Position numbers and translations under genes: made by a program. The notes beneath the pieces were generated by a model that was given only the letters and a program-made list of their open reading frames with translations, did no database searches and was not told where the DNA came from. DNA of 64,000 bases, taken from Ostreococcus lucimarinus (lineage: Eukaryota). The stretch is taken from the NCBI GenBank assembly GCA_000092065.1, contig CP000583.1. One strand, given 5' to 3'. This document shows, piece after piece, positions 952 through 39,441 of this stretch (the first letter of the stretch is position 1; each line of letters begins with the position of its first letter).

Positions 952-2625
952 ATGCCGTGGCGCGGACGCGCGCGAGAGGCACGCGTACCTCGCGCGTTCG
1001 ACGCGAACCGAAGCCTCAGACGCGGCGCGAACGGTGTCGACGACGCCGAGGACGATGCGCCTCGACAAACCAGGCACTCGCGCGCGACGACGTCGTGCGT
1101 CGTCTCTTCGCCGCCGCGCGACGACGAAAGACTGAGCGATTTGTTCGCGGGCGCGACGTTCTACTTCGACGGGTACGTCCCCGAGGGCGCGAGCGTCGTG
1201 CGGACGCTCGCGGAGCGACACGGGGGGAGGGTGGCGCTGGTGTGGAGCAAGACGGCGAAGATTACGCACTACGTCGTCGAGGATTACGGATGCATGGACG
1301 AAATGGCGCGAGATAGACATAGAAGAGGCAAGAGTAAAGAAATGCGATGCGTGCGCTCGTCCTGGATCATGCGATCGATCGATGATGGGCGACTGGTTGA
1401 GGATTACGCCGCGCACGCGCCGAGAGGGACGCCGCGCGCGTCTCCGAAGAAATCGAAGCGAGAGGCGGCGCTGACGGAGATGGATTTGGTGGACCTCATC
1501 ATCGACACCGCGTGGAACGGTACCGGTGGTGTGTCGACGCAGAAGGCGCTGCGCGAGACGTGGGTGATTCGCGTGATTTTTGACCGCGTCGTCAAGGTGA
1601 TGCAGGACGGCAGGACGAAGGACGCCGACGTTCGATTGATTTCATTCAAGGCGTATAACGCGTTGAAACAAGTCGTTCACGAAAGGTGGATCGTGCCAGT
1701 GAGTGCATCGGAGGCGTTAGTTCACATCGAAGGCACAAAAAACATAGGTAAGCGAAACAATTTCGTCACTTCGCAATCGTCGCCGACGGATGCGGCGCAG
1801 GCGCTCGAGTGGATTATGGTGGATGAAAAGGGCGTCAACGTAACCGCGACGATGCACGACGTCCGTAGTGACGGTTGGGATCCGTCGTGGTTAACCGAGC
1901 GCGCTTCAGCGGACGCTTCAGTGGGAGTCGTGACGCGGCGCGCGAGTCGAGCCGCGGCGGCGTCGCAGGATGAGCAAGATTTGCCAACTTTGTCTCAATT
2001 GTCAAACATTGATCCGGAAGATTTGGAGGCGCTCGACCCTCAGACTAGATACGAGTGGTCTAAAGCGCGCGCGGATAGAGAGAATCAGCGCTTACAACAT
2101 CGAAATGTGGCGAACTCTTCGGCGTTCCAGCTACTGAAGGCGTGCGGCTCGGGAAAAGCCGGAAAAGCCATCAAGACGAGGCGACCGGCGCCGGTCGCCG
2201 CGTCTTCGCCAGCGAAACGTCAAATCACTACGCGTAAAGGCGCGCAGCGCGCTGGCGTCAAGAAGAGTGCACAAATGCCGATCACGGCGTACGCCAGTCC
2301 TGTGAAGGAAAAAGGAGGACAAGAAGCGGCGCGACGTTCGTGCGTCGGCGAACCCGTCATGGCGAGCACATCCGTGCACACCGCAACTCTCTTGCATGCT
2401 CTAGAAAGAGTTCTCAGCGTCGACGCGCAATGTCCAGTCGACGACCGCGTTGATGTCGTCGCCGAAATCGTACGATTGCACATCGAAGAGCTCGCGCACG
2501 ACGGACGCCGACAAGAAGTCAGAGCCGTGCGCTGCGGACTCGAAAATTTGTACAGCGATCATCCGAGCTGGGTCGCGGCGCGCGCGAACATCTTGACCGC
2601 GACGGCATCATTAGCGAAACAATAG
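952..2625 (+). CDS. BRCT-domain protein (N-terminal BRCT, long C-terminal region)
   Basis: BRCT signature 'LFAGATFYFDGYV...GGRV...ITHYVVED...WIMRSIDDGRL'. First ATG in frame is at 952; the track start at 775 is non-ATG. The exact 5' end and any introns are unresolved. Confidence 0.5.
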   Translation: MPWRGRAREARVPRAFDANRSLRRGANGVDDAEDDAPRQTRHSRATTSCVVSSPPRDDERLSDLFAGATFYFDGYVPEGASVVRTLAERHGGRVALVWSKTAKITHYVVEDYGCMDEMARDRHRRGKSKEMRCVRSSWIMRSIDDGRLVEDYAAHAPRGTPRASPKKSKREAALTEMDLVDLIIDTAWNGTGGVSTQKALRETWVIRVIFDRVVKVMQDGRTKDADVRLISFKAYNALKQVVHERWIVPVSASEALVHIEGTKNIGKRNNFVTSQSSPTDAAQALEWIMVDEKGVNVTATMHDVRSDGWDPSWLTERASADASVGVVTRRASRAAAASQDEQDLPTLSQLSNIDPEDLEALDPQTRYEWSKARADRENQRLQHRNVANSSAFQLLKACGSGKAGKAIKTRRPAPVAASSPAKRQITTRKGAQRAGVKKSAQMPITAYASPVKEKGGQEAARRSCVGEPVMASTSVHTATLLHALERVLSVDAQCPVDDRVDVVAEIVRLHIEELAHDGRRQEVRAVRCGLENLYSDHPSWVAARANILTATASLAKQ

Positions 2626-2696
2626 AAGTAATCGGTGTAGAAAACAGTAGCGAGCAGTAACGAAAAACAGTAGCGAGCAGTGACGAAGAGGGTCGT

Positions 2697-3299
2697 CTAC
2701 GCCGCCGCTTGGTCGGCGCTCGGATCCCACAAAATTTCCACGAGGACCTCGTTCGTTCTCATGATGCCGGGCGTCCACGGCGGATTATATCCCGCGTACT
2801 GCACGACGGTTTTCTCTCCGTGCGCCAGCTGAACGCCCGCAGCCTTCAACGCTTTCTTTAACGCCTCCGTCTGCGCTTCGATCTCTTCCTTCCGCATCCT
2901 TCCAGAAAATCTTCGCGCCGCCATCGTCCTCGCCGGCACGTCCTTCACCGCCACCTCGGGATCGAGCGCCCTCGGCGCTTGCGCCGCGCCCTCCGGAAAC
3001 TTACTCTTCGGCAGCACGAACTGCATCACGTATCGCGTCGCCGCCGTCGCGTCCGGCGTCATGAACACCGGCGCCGTCATCGCGATCTTCTCGTCCCGCG
3101 CGTTCCTCGGCTTCGACAGCACGCCGATGTACTTTGCGAGTCGCATGAAAGATTTGCCCTGCTCGTCGCGCTCGCGCGGGTCGTACGTCGTCTCGATCAC
3201 GCAGCACGCCTCGTACGTTCGCACCTCGTACCCATCGCACGCGCGCGCGACGTCGTACCGCGGTTGCTCCTCGGAGATCCGTCCGAGCGCGCTCCCCAT
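2697..3299 (-). CDS. SOUL/HBP heme-binding protein
   Basis: 'YEVRTYEA...MTAPVFM...QYAGYNPPWTPGIMRTNEV' matches the SOUL heme-binding family. ATG at 3297-3299. Confidence 0.8.
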   Translation of the reverse strand: MGSALGRISEEQPRYDVARACDGYEVRTYEACCVIETTYDPRERDEQGKSFMRLAKYIGVLSKPRNARDEKIAMTAPVFMTPDATAATRYVMQFVLPKSKFPEGAAQAPRALDPEVAVKDVPARTMAARRFSGRMRKEEIEAQTEALKKALKAAGVQLAHGEKTVVQYAGYNPPWTPGIMRTNEVLVEILWDPSADQAAA

Positions 3300-3346
3300 G
3301 GTCGACGAGTGACGTCGCGGCGACGACGTCGCGACACGCCGCCGCG

Positions 3347-4045
3347 ATGGCGACGACGGCGCGCGCGCAACGCGCGGTCGGGAAGCGCGCGGTCGCGCGC
3401 GGTCGAGACGCGCGTCGCGCGCGCGCGACGGCGGCGCGCGCGACGACGGCGAGCGCGACGCGCACGCGACGCGCGATGCTCGCGGTGCCGCCCGCGGTGC
3501 TCGCGGCGGCGCTGGCGATCGCGCCGACGCCGCGCGCGCGCGCCGAGGGGAAGCAAGATCGAGGGTGCGAGACGTGCAGCGATTCGAACTCGGCGATGAA
3601 CGACGGCGACAAGGTGTTCGTCGTCTCGGCGAGCGGGCTGAGGTACTTGGACCTGAAGGTGGGCGACGGCGCGGAGGCGGCGCCGGGAAAACGAGCGGTG
3701 ATCGATTGGGTCGGGTACACGGCTGGATATCAGGCGAAGAAGATCGAGTCGACGAGGGAGACGGACGAACCGTTCGTGTTCACGATCGGAGGCGGTGAGG
3801 CGATTCCTGGGTTTGAAGAAGCCGTCGCGGGGATGAAAGTCGGAGGCGTTCGAAGAATTGAAATTCCGGGCGAGTTGGAGGAAAAACTCGGATATTCGCG
3901 CGATAAGGCGCTGAGATATAACGTCGGCCCGAAGCCGACGTCTTTCGGAGGTCAGCGCACGTTGGATTTTGTTTTAGACAATCAAACGTTGCGAGACTTT
4001 AACCGCACGCTGTTGTTTGATATTCGTCTCTCCGCGTTGCGGTGA
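3347..4045 (+). CDS. FKBP-type peptidyl-prolyl isomerase, probably thylakoid-lumenal (twin-Arg 'TRRAML' signal)
   Basis: FKBP domain 'GLRYLDLKVGDG...VIDWVGYT...FVFTIGGGEAIPGFEEAVAGMKVGGVRRIEIP'. ATG at 3347. Sits 47 bp from the divergent SOUL gene start. Confidence 0.8.
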   Translation: MATTARAQRAVGKRAVARGRDARRARATAARATTASATRTRRAMLAVPPAVLAAALAIAPTPRARAEGKQDRGCETCSDSNSAMNDGDKVFVVSASGLRYLDLKVGDGAEAAPGKRAVIDWVGYTAGYQAKKIESTRETDEPFVFTIGGGEAIPGFEEAVAGMKVGGVRRIEIPGELEEKLGYSRDKALRYNVGPKPTSFGGQRTLDFVLDNQTLRDFNRTLLFDIRLSALR

Positions 4046-4108
4046 AAAGTTTCTTGAATTTTTTGTGATACTATTACAACCGATTTTGACGACGCGCCCC
4101 GATAGATG

Positions 4109-5113
4109 TCAAAAGAACAGCGCGCGCGCGAGCGACACCGCGGCGTTGGCTAAGAGAACTGATATTCCCGCGACGAGCGCGAGAAACATCGCGACGTATC
4201 TGCGATGCGGCTTCGGCTTCAGCTCGTCGGAATCGGGCACAACGGCGCGCCACATTCGATCATCCAGATAGCTCGTGCCTTCGCTCACAGTTTTCTCCAA
4301 CTCCACCGTTTGCCAATGCATCCCACGCGCGGGATCCCACACGAGTTCAGTTCGCATGCCGCCCGACGGTGTCACCGATCCCGCGACGCTGAGCGTCACG
4401 TTTTCGCACTGCGATCGTCCGAGCGCCTCCACGATGACGTCGGCGACGTCATTTCTTGAAACCTTCCCCGCGTGTACGTGAGCGTCACCGCTCCCGAGCA
4501 GCACACGTCGGTTTCCAGTCTCATCTTTCGCGCACTCCTCGTCGTCGCTCAGATTCCCCGGCCTCACGATGACGTACTTCATCCCGTTCTTCGCCTCTCT
4601 GCAAATCTTACGAATCGCAATCTCCCCCGCGAGCTGCCACTGAATCGTCATGCTCAGCACGACATTCAACAAAACAGCGATCCAATCGAACGCGGGATAT
4701 CCCACCGACATCCCAGTCACCCTGACGAACCGCGCGCACCCCGCATCCGCCGCGCATCGCGCCAGCGTCTCCACCGCGCCGTAGTTGACGTTGCGCGGGT
4801 GCGCCGCCTCTCGCTCCGGCGACCCATCGACCGCGAGAACGTCGCTCAACCTCGCTATGCGCTGCGCGCCGAAGCACGCGATCACGGCGGAGGTGCCCTC
4901 GCACGCGCGCGCGCAATCCTCCGCGCGCGTCGCGTCGCCCTGGATGACTTGAACGCCCGCCATGGAAGCCAACTTCTTCGCGCCCTCAGACGACGCGTCG
5001 CGCGCCATCACGCGCACGCCGCCGCCGCCGCGCTCGATCAAGCGCTCCACCACGCGCGCGCCGACTCGACCGGTGCCGCCGACGACGAGCGTGAGCGGCG
5101 CGACCGGCGTCAT
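4109..5113 (-). CDS. NAD(P)-binding Rossmann protein (NmrA-like/atypical SDR) with C-terminal hydrophobic tail
   Basis: 'LVVGGTGRVGARVVERL' glycine-rich motif and Rossmann-fold topology. ATG at 5111-5113. Confidence 0.6.
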   Translation of the reverse strand: MTPVAPLTLVVGGTGRVGARVVERLIERGGGGVRVMARDASSEGAKKLASMAGVQVIQGDATRAEDCARACEGTSAVIACFGAQRIARLSDVLAVDGSPEREAAHPRNVNYGAVETLARCAADAGCARFVRVTGMSVGYPAFDWIAVLLNVVLSMTIQWQLAGEIAIRKICREAKNGMKYVIVRPGNLSDDEECAKDETGNRRVLLGSGDAHVHAGKVSRNDVADVIVEALGRSQCENVTLSVAGSVTPSGGMRTELVWDPARGMHWQTVELEKTVSEGTSYLDDRMWRAVVPDSDELKPKPHRRYVAMFLALVAGISVLLANAAVSLARALFF

Positions 5114-33223: not shown

Positions 33224-34024
33224 TTACGCGAGTCTCGGCGCGAGCCATCCGAGGGCGGCATCGATCCACTCGCCCTCGTGATGAATGTCGACGCTCTCGA
33301 AACCTTCGATGACGTCGTGCGCGACGCCGGCGGCTTCGAGTTGGCGAGCAAAGTCGCCGAGCTCGTTCGCAGTTTTGCTCCCGGGGATGAGAGCGATTCT
33401 AGACAATTCAGTGGCGTTGAGATGGTCGCGAACCCACGCGTCGCGTGCGATGGTGGTGACGTCGTACGGGGTCCAGTCGTCGTCTTGCGGGAACGCCTCG
33501 TTCCACGACCCCCAGTTCGCCTCGCGCTCGAGATCTTCGCGTCCCCACGCTCGCTCTATCATCTTAAACCCACCTAAGATCGGTACATCAGCGGCGATAA
33601 CGGCGTGAAATGCCGTTGGACGTCGCATGAGCAAACTCAGCGCCCCGTACGCGCCTGAACCAAAGCCAAGAAGCGACATCTTGCCCACGTTGTGCGCCGC
33701 CAAGAAGTGCGGCAACACCACCTTGAGCAAATAGCTCTCGTGGTTCATCGACGCCGAATCGTTCAGCCACGTCGGCGTGTTAAACGCCAACTCAACCAAA
33801 ATTACATCCTTCGCGTCGTTCCACTTCTTCTTTGCCACGCTCGACGTCAAAGATACCTTCCCCTCCCTCGGCCCGAATCCCGCCTCTCCCGGCACGCAAA
33901 TCAACGCGTCGTACGGCTCTTTCCTGTTCCCATCGTACCCTTTCGGCAACTTCACTCGATACCGCGTGGGTGTCGCCACCTTTGTCTTGACGTCGTAATC
34001 GTAATTCGCGTTCGGAAAGTGCAC
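33224..34024 (-). CDS. Esterase of the esterase-D / 'putative esterase' (alpha/beta hydrolase) family
   Basis: 'MSLLGFGSGAYGALSLLMRRP' nucleophile-elbow region and overall esterase-D-like order. Track start is GTG; the real ATG exon may be the Ser/Ala-rich ORF at 34163..34357 (minus). Confidence 0.6.
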   Translation of the reverse strand: MHFPNANYDYDVKTKVATPTRYRVKLPKGYDGNRKEPYDALICVPGEAGFGPREGKVSLTSSVAKKKWNDAKDVILVELAFNTPTWLNDSASMNHESYLLKVVLPHFLAAHNVGKMSLLGFGSGAYGALSLLMRRPTAFHAVIAADVPILGGFKMIERAWGREDLEREANWGSWNEAFPQDDDWTPYDVTTIARDAWVRDHLNATELSRIALIPGSKTANELGDFARQLEAAGVAHDVIEGFESVDIHHEGEWIDAALGWLAPRLA

Positions 34025-34468
34025 CCTGTGCGGTTGTAACGCATCAAAACTGCGCGCCGGCGCCGCGTCGGCGTCCCGGTCAGTCTCGCATTCAGCCGCT
34101 CATCCCCTCTCGCGTCGTTTCCGCGTCGTTTCCGCGTCGTCGTGGTTCCGCGCGCGGTCGACTCACCTCGAGTATTCGTGTTCAGCGCCGTACTCGTGCG
34201 CTTCGCGCAGCGTCGCGTTCCCCGGGACGTACGTCGTCGTCGCGTCCGCCGCGCCGTCCGCCGCCGCCGCGCGTGACGACGACGACGCGCGTCGTTTCGT
34301 CGCGCGGGCGTCGACGATGAGGCGCGAAAGAGCGCACTGCGGTCGTACGCTCGTCATCGCGCGCGCGGTCGACGCTCGGTCGCGCGCGGGCGAATGACGG
34401 TGGCGAATTCGGCGAAAAGAGGTTTTCGCACTCCAAAGGCTACGGCTGCGCGGGCTCGCGTCGGCTAG

Positions 34469-35755
34469 TTACTTTGACGAGGAGAATAGGCGTCGGCGCT
34501 TCTTAGCGCCGGTGTACGCACCGTGCTTGGCGATGGCGGTGTCGTCTTTGCTAGCGATGACGATCGTGGCGTTGGCGCCATCGTCGGTGGCGTTGACGGC
34601 GGCGACGACGAAGACGCCGTCGGGCGACGCGACGACGCGGTCGACGCCGGCGAGGGCGGAGGATCGAGCCTTTTCCAACACGACTGGTACGTTCGGGTCG
34701 GTGATGTCGACGACGACGATGGCACCGATACTTTTGGCGGCGACGTACGCGGTGGTGCCGTGGACGCTAACGTCGCGCGCGCCCGATAAATCTCGGTTCG
34801 CCGCCGGCGCTAACTCAAAGCCATCCGACGGTTCGTTCGGCGCGAGTCGCCCCGCGTGCACCCCGTTCAAATACTCGGGCGCGCCGTACGTCGAGCTGTT
34901 AAATATCGAAAACGTCCCCCCATTCAACGTCGGCGTCACCACGTACGTGTACGCGCGTTCGCCGCCCCCCACCCCCACGCACGCGCCGCTCGCGCTCTCC
35001 AACCGACTATCCTTGACGCTCCCGACGAGTTGCATCGTCCCCGCCGAGGTGTACTTTAACGTCGTCACTCTCCGCGTCATCCCGCTCATCGTCCGCAGCG
35101 TTTGCCTATCATACGGTCCTAACTGTATTTTATCGATTCCCGAGAGCTGATACGTCGATCCCGTGATCGTCGGCGCGTCGTTTTCGTTCGGATCCAACTT
35201 CACGAAGACCACCCGCGCGTGCGCTCGGCTCGCCACGAACGCCAGCGTCCCGTTCACCACCACCACATCCGTCGGCTCCGCGATTCTCGTCGCGTTCTTC
35301 ACCGCGTGTATCTGTCTCGCTTTCGTCGCTCGCGTTCCATCGCCATCGACGCCGTATATCAACAACGAATTCGTTCCCGCGCACGTCACCGCCAGGCGCG
35401 CTCGATTTCCCGCCGCGACGCCGTCCCGCGCGCTCTCGTACGCGAACAGCCCTTCGCACGGCGTCGCGTCCTCGTCGAGCGTCGCGATCGTCGTCAGCGT
35501 CACCGGCGACGTCGTGAGCGTCAGCGCGCTGATCGTTCGCGCGCCGAGGACGTACGCGATCGTCGACAGCGCCGACGGCGCGGACGACGCGTGCGCCGCG
35601 GGGGTGATGAATTCGACGGTTCGCGCGTCGACGTCGGCGAACGGAGACGCGATCTGCGTCAAATTCGCCGCGCGCGCGACGGCGCAGAGCGATGCGATGA
35701 CGACGCCGCGCGCGACGCGGGCGAGGCGCGGACGCGCCGACGCGCGAGGCGCCAT
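34469..35755 (-). CDS. Secreted beta-propeller protein with LVIVD-type repeats
   Basis: Signal peptide 'MAPRASARPRLARVARGVVIASLCAVARAANLT'. Repeated blades containing 'GAIVVVDITDPNVPVVL', 'VFVKLDPNENDAPT' and 'DVVVVNGTLAFVAS' (LVIVD-like). ATG at 35753-35755. Confidence 0.5.
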   Translation of the reverse strand: MAPRASARPRLARVARGVVIASLCAVARAANLTQIASPFADVDARTVEFITPAAHASSAPSALSTIAYVLGARTISALTLTTSPVTLTTIATLDEDATPCEGLFAYESARDGVAAGNRARLAVTCAGTNSLLIYGVDGDGTRATKARQIHAVKNATRIAEPTDVVVVNGTLAFVASRAHARVVFVKLDPNENDAPTITGSTYQLSGIDKIQLGPYDRQTLRTMSGMTRRVTTLKYTSAGTMQLVGSVKDSRLESASGACVGVGGGERAYTYVVTPTLNGGTFSIFNSSTYGAPEYLNGVHAGRLAPNEPSDGFELAPAANRDLSGARDVSVHGTTAYVAAKSIGAIVVVDITDPNVPVVLEKARSSALAGVDRVVASPDGVFVVAAVNATDDGANATIVIASKDDTAIAKHGAYTGAKKRRRLFSSSK

Positions 35756-35904
35756 GTGACGCGCGACGACGACGGCGAGGCGAGACGCGACGCGCGAATC
35801 AAACGAAACGCGACGCGACGAACGATCGTCGCGCGAACGTCTCCGACGCGATCGAAAAGATGGGATGAAATAAGATGGGATGAATGAATGACGGGGGTCG
35901 AAGG

Positions 35905-37052
35905 TCACGGTCGACGCATCTTGCGAACGAGGTCGGGCTCGAGGTAGTCGACGCGCGGAATCGAACGCGCGACGCGCCGGCGAATCGGCGAAGACGGCGG
36001 TTCGATTCTGGGGACGTCGGCGATGACGTCGAGCGGAGATCTCGCGGGTGGACTGGCGTGCGTTTTGATGGTGGACGCTGGCGCCGGTGATGCGTCGCGA
36101 GGCGGTGGGGGAGAATTTTCCGGCGACGGCGGCGGCGCGAGCGGGCGCGGCGGCGAAAGCGCGAGCGGGCCGACGACTTTGCGTTCTTCGATCTCGTCGA
36201 ACCCGCTCGGACGTCGAAGCTTCGTCTTCAAGCTCGGCTCGGCGTAATTCAATACTTTCATGGCGTGTCTCGCGCGCAGGGCGCGTCGAGCCGTCTCTCC
36301 CACGGGTGTCGTCTGCTTGGGCTCTTTCGTTTTCGCCGTGGACTTGCCGATCGGTTTCTTCGCCTTGGCGCGCTTCTTCGGCGTCTGCTTCTTTATGACT
36401 CTACGCTCGATCGCCGCATCGCAGAGCGCGAGAGACAACTCACGCAACGTTTCCGCCGCTTCCGTCAACGACAAGCTTTCACTCTCACCACGCGCGTCGG
36501 AATCGGACGACGATGCGTCTTCGTCGCTCTCTTCGTCCGCGTAAACGTCGATCGATTTAGAAGCCTCGCGCCTCCCTCCACTCATTTTCGCCTTCTCCTT
36601 CGCGTGCGCGAGCTCGATTCTCAACCGACACACATCATCCCGCGCCGCGCGAAGCTCTTCGATCCACCGTCGCTTCTCCTCTTCCACAGTCGTTCGGACC
36701 ATTCGCAACGCAGTCGTCAACGTACGCTGGCTCGCCTCGGACGCTTCGGCGCGTTCCCGCGCCTCCGTCGTCTGCGCTCTCAGCTGCGCGAAACCGACCC
36801 GAACGCTTCCCGTCAATCACGAGCACGCACGTCTATCCCTGCATTCCGTTTTCTTCCCCCCTTTCGCCGTCTCGAGCGCGAGAGCCCTCTCGCGTCGCGC
36901 GCGCCGATTCCAAAAATGATTCCAAAAATCCAGGCACTCTCGGGCTGTCTCGGACGCACCTTGGCGTTCGCGCGCGCGAGCTCGCCGTTCGCGCGCGCGA
37001 ACTTGGCGCACAGCGACGACGCGCTGCGAGGATTTCCCGCGTCCCGTCCCAT
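35905..37052 (-). CDS. SGO: Shugoshin (SGO). Exon 1 at 36960..37052, 176-nt intron, exon 2 at 35905..36783
   Basis: C-terminal SGO basic motif 'RRALRARHAMKVLNYAEPSLKTKLRRP'. Exon 1 'MGRDAGNPRSASSLCAKFARANGELARANAK' plus exon 2 'LRAQTTEARERAEA...' form the N-terminal coiled coil. Donor is AAG|GTGCGT and acceptor is CAG|, both phase 0. Confidence 0.6.
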
Positions 37053-37284
37053 CGTTTCGGCGTTCGATCGAGGCGCGCGGCGCGATCAACGCGAATCATT
37101 CATCGTCGTTCGCGCGCGCGCGAGTGACGAACGCGACGCCCGCATTCGCGATCTCGCGATCGATCGCGACACACCGCGGCGTCGGTGACGCGAGCGACGC
37201 GCGCGAACGCGAACGAATCGCGCGCGATCGATTCGGCTCGCGCGCGACGCGCGCGGCGGTCGACGACGGCGAGGCCGCGACGCG

Positions 37285-37847: not shown

Positions 37848-38403
37848 CGCGTCGCGTCTGCCGTCCTGGACGCGCGTCGACGCCGCGTCCCGCGCTCGCG
37901 CGCGTAGACGTTGTCATCGCAGCGCGCCCATCGCTCGCCGCGTCCTCGTCCGCGCCCTCGCGCCGTCGTCGCGTCTCGCGCGCGCGCCTCGCGCGCGCGT
38001 GAGATTTTTCTTCGCATACTTAACTTCAAAAACGCCCATCAATGGTGATCACCACCGGACCCATCGCGCCGTCCGCGTCAGCATCTTCGCGCGCGCGCGT
38101 CGGTTGCTCCGTCCCCCGCCGCAATCTTCCCCGCACACGCCGACGTCCGCGACGCGCGCGCGCCGATCGCGCGACGAACCGCTCGCGCTCGCGTTCGTTC
38201 ACGCGCCCGAATCTCGCGCGCGCGCAAAACCGCGCGCGCGCGGACGCGAGACGCGGAAATCTCGACGATTGCGCGCGCCGACCCTCGCGCGCTTTTGAGT
38301 GTTCGCGCGACGTCGACGGGACGCCGCGACGCGCGCGCGCGATCGATCGCGAAGGAAACGCGAGGGAAGAAGAACGCGAGCGCGTGAACGCGCGGTGCGC
38401 GGC

Positions 38404-39441
38404 ATGGGGGCGTACACGTACGATAGCGCCACGCACGGGCCGCCGATCGGGGTCCCGAGGACGATTGGCAAGGCGCGGACGACGGCGCGCGGGGACGACG
38501 CGGAGGGCGATTCCGGTTCCGGACGCTCGAGCGATGCCCCGCTGTCGGTGAATGTTTTTGGAGGTGGGACACAGTTCGCGAGGTCGAGTCCGAGCGAGTC
38601 CGAGGTCGGCACGCCGGGTCGAGGGATGGAAGCTCCTCGAAACGGGACGGCGACGGCGAGGCCGCGCGGGCGCGCGTCGTCGGGTTCAAAGTCGCCGACG
38701 GATCTCAGCGAGACTGATTCAGAGCAAAGTAACACGGGGAAGGGTGATGGTGCGAACAAATTGGTGCATAAAGATTTGGTGACAAACTTGAAGGCGCAAG
38801 CGCGCAGACACGATTCGAGAACGTCGCTCTACAGAGGGGTTTCTCTGTTGCGGCAAACCGGCAAGTACCACGCGCAAATCAACGTGCAGCGGAAACAGTT
38901 GCATCTTGGTTTCTTTTTCAGCGAAGAAGAGGCCGCGCGGGCGTACGATCGGGCGGCAATATTCAAGGCTTCGGTAGAAGGCGGCACCATCTGTACAAAT
39001 ATGGACATCAACGATTACAAGGATGAAATTCCCACCTTGCAGGCGATGACGCAGCCCGAACTGTTACAAATGTTGCACGAGATGAAGCTGAAGAGTAACG
39101 AGAGTTCGGCGCCAAATTCGCCGCGAAAAGGAATTAAACCGCGCACAAGCACCAATTCCAAGCAAATGGCTCGCGAAAATCGATTGGATCGTAGTAACAG
39201 CGGCAGCATTGAGCACGTGATCATCAAGGCGAACTCGCAAGAGCCGCCGACGAGTCCGCGTTTTGACGCGTTAAACAGCGCCGTAGGTGTCGTCGAACGG
39301 GAACAGCAAGGCACTTTGAGTGTTGTCAATGTGGCTGCTTCAGTCACCGTGCAGCACACGTGTCCGGGTGTGATTGATTTACACATCAGCAAGCGTCGAA
39401 GGACGCGAATACAACCCAGACAAGCGCCCGCGGCAGCGTAA
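38404..39441 (+). CDS. AP2/ERF-domain transcription factor
   Basis: 'YRGVSLLRQTGKYHAQINVQRKQLHLGFFFSEEEAARAYDRAAIFKASVEGGTICTNMDINDY' AP2 domain. ATG at 38404 (track start 38299 is non-ATG). Confidence 0.75.
   Translation: MGAYTYDSATHGPPIGVPRTIGKARTTARGDDAEGDSGSGRSSDAPLSVNVFGGGTQFARSSPSESEVGTPGRGMEAPRNGTATARPRGRASSGSKSPTDLSETDSEQSNTGKGDGANKLVHKDLVTNLKAQARRHDSRTSLYRGVSLLRQTGKYHAQINVQRKQLHLGFFFSEEEAARAYDRAAIFKASVEGGTICTNMDINDYKDEIPTLQAMTQPELLQMLHEMKLKSNESSAPNSPRKGIKPRTSTNSKQMARENRLDRSNSGSIEHVIIKANSQEPPTSPRFDALNSAVGVVEREQQGTLSVVNVAASVTVQHTCPGVIDLHISKRRRTRIQPRQAPAAA

Follow-up and report, generated by a model that had tools for sequence, protein, structure and literature searches.

A two-exon gene model for the likely shugoshin of Ostreococcus lucimarinus restores an N-terminal motif that the reference protein lacks

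A window of DNA, i.e., a stretch of 64,000 nucleotides (nt) of Ostreococcus lucimarinus (contig CP000583.1, assembly GCA_000092065.1), was analysed for a gene of the shugoshin (Sgo/MEI-S332) family on its minus strand. Several proteins encoded in the window were identical to RefSeq entries of O. lucimarinus CCE9901, e.g., XP_001416993.1 and XP_001417005.1. The gene was recognized as consisting of two exons (37052..36960 and 36783..35905) that encode a protein of 323 amino acids (aa). It is highly likely that the locus is the shugoshin gene of this strain, with a function assigned by homology alone. The existing annotation, i.e., XP_001416998.1 / ABO95291.1 / UniRef A4RUQ0, is a single-exon "predicted protein" of 265 aa which begins at Met59 (36702), inside exon 2. 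Its residues are identical to aa 59-323 of the spliced product. Because the reference model leaves out exon 1 together with 27 codons at the start of exon 2, it begins only halfway along the N-terminal helix and is without the N-x6-N motif.

The shugoshin identity of the gene is already published. In van Hooff et al. (2017, EMBO Rep, PMC5579357), Dataset EV1 Sgo.fa lists the entry Ostreococcus_lucimarinus_OLUC005582_Sgo, the sequence of which is identical to aa 59-323 of the spliced protein. Statements on this dataset refer, here and below, to the portion of it that was covered. The same 265-aa single-exon model is used by NCBI, UniProt, EukProt and van Hooff 2017. The identity is not new because that study names the O. 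lucimarinus Sgo, and because the orthologue in Ostreococcus tauri bears the name "Shugoshin, C-terminal". The new content is the correction of the gene model, by which the N-terminal motif is restored. A first-pass annotation of the window, made from its letters, had called the locus a shugoshin of a kind often missed in algal annotations. This does not hold for the gene, which is annotated as XP_001416998.1/A4RUQ0 and included in the published dataset, but it holds for the first exon.

The coding sequence runs from a start ATG at 37052..37050 to a stop TGA at 35907..35905. The coding part of exon 1 (36960..37052, minus strand) has 93 nt, i.e., 31 codons (MGRDAGNPRSASSLCAKFARANGELARANAK), and the GC content at its third codon positions is 0.87. 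The last two codons of the exon, GCC AAG, reach 36960, and GTGCGT comes next. The intron (36784..36959, minus strand) is 176 nt long and reads GTGCGT...TTGAC...CGCGCAG, in which TTGAC is a branch-like sequence 33 nt from the intron 3' end. The coding part of exon 2 (35905..36783, minus strand) comprises aa 32-323 and the TGA. It opens with CTG at 36783, in frame with an open reading frame (ORF) on the minus strand that spans 36816 to the TGA at 35907..35905 and has no ATG ahead of Met59. If exon 1 were left unspliced, its frame would terminate at 36813, within the intron. The donor AAG/GTGCGT, the acceptor CAG at 36783 and the 31-codon exon were all proposed in the first-pass annotation, and their coordinates were exact on re-reading of the sequence.

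Evidence at the RNA level was found in three independent assembled transcript contigs from public sequencing runs, i.e., L008 (SRR28369057), L009 (DRR699221) and L010 (DRR066263). Each was aligned to the window in two blocks, with identities of 97.6-99.9%. Positions 36959..36784 were exactly absent from all three, and the junction was GCCAAG/CTGAGAG. Exon 1, with its ATG, is joined in frame to exon 2 in these contigs, and the exact 323-aa product is encoded by each of them. The transcripts match the proposed exon, donor and acceptor exactly.

The upstream exon and the same intron position were also found in six other Ostreococcus-type lineages, i.e., O. tauri (L001), L002/L003, L004, L005, L006, and L007. 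The exon of these relatives encodes L-[CT]-A-[KR]-F-A-x-x-N-x-E-L-A-[RK]-A-N-x-[KRQ] and always closes at a phase-0 GT donor, and the protein continues with L-[RK] after the intron. The introns are of the GT..AG type and 84-199 nt long, and their length differences are non-multiples of 3. Between the window and its closest relative, L004, exon 1 was identical at 90/93 nt; in the intron, 149/178 aligned columns were identical, with indels (176 vs 172 nt). The conservation of exon 1 at the protein level holds across lineages that are just 30-50% identical overall. One protein of a relative, P0010 (UniParc UPI0003232B99), is already spliced at its N-terminus and begins with MVNDKNLCARFAQVNAELARANTK, joined at the junction to LRS. 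The annotated O. tauri protein (P0018, 252 aa, CAID01000003.2) is likewise truncated and starts at an internal Met. A conserved first exon of 39 codons (L001 2625..2741) and an intron of 196 nt lie upstream, which gives a protein of 312 aa. The genes follow the same order on O. tauri chromosome 3 and in metagenomic relatives, i.e., CwfJ-type, esterase-like, LVIVD-like, shugoshin, small divergent gene, AP2-domain gene, and Sas10/Utp3.

These data bear on the alternative that the reference single-exon model is real. In that case, translation would start at Met59 to give 265 aa, and the upstream exon would be an untranslated leader or a separate small ORF. The 265-aa product is the one adopted by all four resources named above, a shorter isoform from an internal start is possible, and ATGs in the leader could depress the use of the ATG at 37052. 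Against this, exon 1 is joined in frame to exon 2 in three spliced contigs, and it is conserved as protein in distant lineages whereas the intron is not. Moreover, exon 1 holds the N-terminal motif of the family, which is missing from the 265-aa model and with which the published Sgo of Micromonas begins. The single-exon model is considered very improbable, and the two-exon gene is retained in what follows.

The 5' leader (37053..37167, minus strand) was covered by the transcript contigs, which reach upstream to 37108 (L010), 37125 (L008), and 37167 (L009). Two upstream ORFs (uORFs) were observed in it. The 5-codon uORF, MNDSR and stop, starts at 37103, and a longer one of 47 codons, out of frame, starts at 37099 and overlaps the ATG at 37052. 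The leader extension may derive from the divergent neighbouring gene because the assemblies are unstranded. Should transcription in fact begin upstream of the uORFs, shugoshin could be translated only by leaky scanning or reinitiation.

Two elements define shugoshins, an N-terminal coiled coil and a basic SGO motif, and outside these the proteins diverge (Marston 2015, PMC4301718). Dimers form through the coiled coil, which also binds protein phosphatase 2A (PP2A) and/or the chromosomal passenger complex (CPC), and the SGO motif is essential to interaction with phosphorylated H2A (PMC4301718).

By conservation, hidden Markov model (HMM) search and hhalign, an N-terminal motif of this family, L-C-A-K-F-A-x-x-N-x-E-L-A-R-A-N-x-K, was found at aa 14-31 (36960..37013, minus strand). 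It continues into exon 2 as L32 R33 (36783..36778). The residues A16, F18, A19, N22, E24, L25, A26, A28, N29, and L32 are invariant in the 7 Ostreococcus-type sequences. A continuous helix, a candidate coiled coil, was predicted by AlphaFold2 at aa 8-100 (36577..37031, minus strand). The helix spans the intron and crosses the exon junction, and its predicted local distance difference test (pLDDT) score is 86-98 per 10-residue block. When the heptads are set in the register that fits best, position 'a' is taken by N22 and N29 and position 'd' by F18, L25, and L32. The register is unbroken over the junction at aa 31/32; the first-pass annotation had assigned the ATG and the first heptads to exon 1.

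The motif was compared with those of published shugoshins. A custom HMM was built from 14 published non-Ostreococcus Sgo motifs of the van Hooff set (plants, Physcomitrella, Chlorella, Micromonas, and early-diverging fungi). It matched aa 17-43 of the window protein at 19.2 bits, whereas the best of 3000 N-terminal shuffles reached at most 9.3 bits. Six other Ostreococcus-type proteins were matched at the same place, and the 265-aa reference model was not among the matches. The alignment of Ostreococcus N-termini was also compared by hhalign with four Shugoshin_N domains, which gave a score of 18.0 (P 0.005). In this comparison, F18/N22/N29 fall on the fungal F/N/N of F.KQN.E..K.N, in the same register. 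The score was reached by 0/300 column shuffles (max 11.6) and 0/300 shuffles that preserve the heptad register (max 17.6). The validation of the four reference domains consisted only of the 40-60 bits that they reached in Pfam, except that the human one was also confirmed against the published set. By BLASTP of the 323-aa protein against the Sgo of Micromonas RCC299, the best alignment starts in exon 1, i.e., ANGELARANAKLRA vs ANQELARHNGKLRA, with an E value of 9e-6. The N-terminal region, a candidate coiled coil, thus carries the Asn-containing motif of the family, and dimer formation is predicted.

The basic SGO motif, referred to as motif 1, was found at aa 193-223 (GETARRALRARHAMKVLNYAEPSLKTKLRRP; 36208..36300, minus strand) by Pfam PF07557 Shugoshin_C. 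On the whole protein, the match covers aa 202-222 with 27.7 bits (E 2.3e-6), which exceeds the gathering cut-off of 23.3. On the isolated segment, the score was 31.9 bits. The first-pass annotation had named the gene after the basic stretch RRALRARHAMKVLNYAEPSLKTKLRRP, i.e., aa 197-223 (36288..36208), and the name is supported by this match above the curated cut-off. Among the relatives, motif 1 hardly varies, and no other block of the family is conserved as well. The profile length is just 24 positions.

The region between the coiled coil and motif 1 is largely disordered and aligns poorly among relatives. The pLDDT was below 50 at aa 102-127 and 168-190. An acidic, serine-rich disordered stretch, ADEESDEDASSSDSDARGESES, lies at aa 113-134 (36475..36540, minus strand), and its composition, not its sequence, is conserved among relatives. 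A second helix was predicted at aa 130-164 (36385..36489, minus strand; pLDDT 73-91), with the core AAExLRxL and the invariant residues A140, A141, E142, L144, and L147. The order in the AlphaFold2 model, i.e., helix at aa 8-100, disorder, helix at aa 130-164 and a short helical SGO motif, is the architecture of shugoshins. The predicted template modelling score of the model, which is one long helix plus disorder, was 0.26.

Several results weigh against the shugoshin assignment or its functional reading. The Shugoshin_N profile (Pfam PF07558), named in the first-pass annotation as one way to check the assignment, gave no match at E<=10 with either the full protein or aa 1-101. The scan of the N-terminus for domains of this type gave only generic coiled-coil families, all below their cut-offs. 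When the N-terminal profile was searched against PDB sequences, no solved Sgo1 coiled-coil structure was found, and only chance matches to ribosomal protein L28 were returned. An exhaustive HMMER search of 1.84 billion representative proteins gave 19 matches and did not reach the canonical shugoshins. Apart from one eukaryotic fragment, P0126, the matches came from the same clade or were ORFs that read through the intron; therefore, the link to canonical shugoshins consists of two short motifs. No functional data for shugoshins of Mamiellales were found in the literature searched. Finally, the sole O. lucimarinus MadBub entry shown in the covered part of the van Hooff set (OLUC003316) appears short, ca. 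220 aa in the excerpt, and no kinase domain is visible in it. Bub1-kinase-dependent H2A phosphorylation may be missing in O. lucimarinus, or that model may be truncated as well.

The failure of Shugoshin_N is not disqualifying, because the N-terminal motif region of Arabidopsis SGO1, the one plant sequence tried and one that was confirmed in the published set, is missed by this profile too. Two further searches concern the reach of the family. A word-indexed search with the full-length 7-sequence profile returned only Ostreococcus-type relatives, and a large search with P0126 as query returned P0126 alone. In the literature searched for shugoshin together with Ostreococcus or green algae, nothing specific was found.

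The same points favour the idea that the gene encodes an unrelated coiled-coil protein with a basic motif by chance. The Shugoshin_C profile is short, Shugoshin_N fails, the large HMMER search misses canonical shugoshins, and UniRef names A4RUQ0 (UniRef100_A4RUQ0, window 35905..36702) a "PH domain-containing protein". This label is probably an automatic misnaming, and no PH-type family was among the Pfam matches of the 323-aa protein even at E<=10. Also against the idea, the score of motif 1 exceeds the curated cut-off and this block is conserved best, the independent N-terminal motif agrees with published Sgo orthologues in place and register, and the predicted architecture as a whole fits a shugoshin. 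The chance that the protein is unrelated is, therefore, rated as minimal, slightly below that of the single-exon model, and the shugoshin assignment is kept.

The protein was compared with known shugoshins. The O. tauri protein P0018 (chromosome 3), the syntenic orthologue, shares 42% identity with it, likewise has two SGO motifs, and is encoded among the same neighbours, i.e., LVIVD-like, CwfJ, and Sas10/Utp3. The Sgo of Micromonas sp. RCC299 (MICPUN_57584) has the same N-terminal motif (IVANQELARHNGKLRAD vs ARANGELARANAKLRAQ), but it has a single SGO motif, NVSYAEPSLKAKVRRP, and a long unrelated C-terminal tail, with a total of ca. 550 aa. Plant SGO1/SGO2 (Arabidopsis, rice, Aquilegia, and Physcomitrella) share the N-x6-N motif (e.g., EQNLLLAQANTRIL) and the C-terminal SGO motif. 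They differ in that a GDITN-type box precedes the motif, which lies ca. 100 aa in from the N-terminus, and in that they have one SGO motif and about twice the length. Shugoshins of fungi and animals (S. pombe Sgo1, S. cerevisiae Sgo1, human SGO1, and Drosophila MEI-S332) have the same architecture of coiled coil, disorder and SGO motif (PMC4301718). The N-domains of this group, of which the human one was confirmed against the published set, match Shugoshin_N at 40-60 bits, whereas the O. lucimarinus protein does not. The Sgo models of oomycetes (Hyaloperonospora and Albugo) have two SGO motifs, ca. 35-55 aa apart; they are otherwise unrelated, and an N-terminal N-x6-N motif is not evident in the entries covered.

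A second SGO-like motif, RRRVARSIPRVDYLEPDLVRKMRRP, was found at the extreme C-terminus, aa 299-323 (35908..35982, minus strand), by conservation in 7 lineages and by the motif-1 HMM. Its residues Y311, E313, P314, L316, K319, M320, R321, and R322 are invariant in the 7 lineages. The seven Ostreococcus-type tails read R-x-x-x-[VI]-x-Y-x-E-P-[DN]-L-[VI]-x-K-M-R-R and lie 54-119 aa past motif 1. Between the two motifs, a box SP.[DE]I[IVF]..[VLI]P was found in 7/7 sequences, in surroundings that cannot be aligned. In the window protein, the box is the short motif SPxDVIADVP at aa 280-289 (36010..36039, minus strand), of which S280, P281, and P289 are invariant. The motif-1 HMM finds motif 2 in 7/7 tails above 2000 shuffles. 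The copy in the window is the weakest, at 10.4 bits vs 8.9 for the best shuffle. Pfam scores motif 2 as a second Shugoshin_C stretch in the relatives P0010, P0016, and P0021, and no such second stretch was scored at motif 2 of the window protein itself.

Two SGO motifs in one protein were also seen outside Ostreococcus. Besides the Hyaloperonospora and Albugo Sgo of the van Hooff set, a eukaryotic contig, L011 (Logan SRR23617307; P0126), has at 1764..4420 an intron-rich gene that ends in two SGO motifs, ca. 95 aa apart. An upstream exon of L011 resembles the start of plant shugoshins (...MSNVTNF...KKLLREKERML...). The Sgo of Micromonas, Bathycoccus, Chlorella, plants, and vertebrates have one motif each in the part of the published set that was covered. 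No paper was found in the literature searched with phrases for two or multiple SGO motifs.

Motif 2 may be the working H2A-binding SGO motif, or both motifs may be required, so that the protein would be a bivalent nucleosome binder, unlike single-motif shugoshins. The invariant core of motif 2, i.e., 8 positions in 7 lineages and always at the C-terminal end, speaks for this, as does the independent recurrence of dual motifs in the two oomycetes and in P0126/L011. On the other side, the copy in the window is the most diverged one, alone without a Pfam match and at 10.4 bits vs 8.9 for the best shuffle, and the covered entries of Micromonas, Bathycoccus, Chlorella, plants, and vertebrates have one motif per Sgo. 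This reading is regarded as doubtful. Likewise, it is suggested only tentatively, from a second motif preceded by an SPxEIIAxVP box in every Ostreococcus-type lineage examined, that Ostreococcus shugoshins are bivalent. If they are, the protein, or a coiled-coil dimer with four motifs, could engage both nucleosomal H2A tails or bridge neighbouring nucleosomes. Such bivalency might be adaptive where chromosomes are very small and their centromeres tiny.

Because the architecture of shugoshins is present, a role as a pericentromeric adaptor is the likeliest one for the two-exon gene product. By analogy with known members, the predicted N-terminal helix would pair into a parallel coiled-coil dimer, to which PP2A-B56 and/or the CPC would dock; we infer this binding solely from conservation of the motif. 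The basic SGO motif would bind pericentromeric nucleosomes with a Bub1-phosphorylated H2A tail. The protein would bring the phosphatase to pericentromeric cohesin, guard the cohesin until the right division and aid biorientation. The second SGO-like motif may, as a speculation, provide an extra nucleosome contact.

Some observations were made on the surroundings of the gene. L008 runs 511 nt beyond the shugoshin stop (35394..35904, minus strand) into the next gene (ATG 35755), and the gap between the stop and this gene is ca. 150 nt. Either transcripts of neighbouring same-strand genes run into one another by overlap or read-through, or they were joined in assembly. The next gene model, XP_001416997.1/ABO95290.1 (694 aa, 33300..35755, minus strand), joins a 428-aa LVIVD-like gene (34469..35755) to an esterase-like gene. 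These are called as two genes in O. tauri and metagenomic relatives; in O. lucimarinus, the two may truly be fused, or the model may have merged them. Two genes upstream of the shugoshin, the ORF 38299..39441 (plus strand) showed a weak AP2-domain match of 21.2 bits, below the cut-off of 33.3; this position is kept in O. tauri.

Within the intron, a perfect tandem duplication of the 12-mer ATTTTTGGAATC lies at 36906..36929; the close relative L004 lacks the duplication and has one diverged copy. No notable tandem repeats were found near the gene, and no tRNAs in the window. An antisense ORF (36265..37188, 307 codons) was rejected as coding, with a mirror-image GC pattern of codon positions and no homologues. 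In the relatives L004, P0006, P0009, P0019, and P0020, a frameshift was observed in the proline-rich stretch after motif 1. The contigs concerned include metagenomic ones of 380 kb and 248 kb, and an out-of-frame tail replaces the C-terminal part including motif 2. The frameshift may be genuine, or it may stem from misassembly of a C-rich run.

The practical value of this work is a corrected gene model for O. lucimarinus and O. tauri. The reference models (265 aa and 252 aa) drop the motif that is expected, by homology, to bind PP2A. Therefore, work built on these models misses it, e.g., the design of constructs, studies of motif evolution, and presence/absence calls of PP2A binding. What is known of the family is unchanged by the corrected gene or the duplicated motif. 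With the corrected N-terminus, an N-x6-N coiled-coil motif is common to picoalgae and land plants, though Shugoshin_N misses it in the O. lucimarinus protein and in Arabidopsis SGO1. The duplicated SGO motif is a small lead on how shugoshins read centromeric chromatin.

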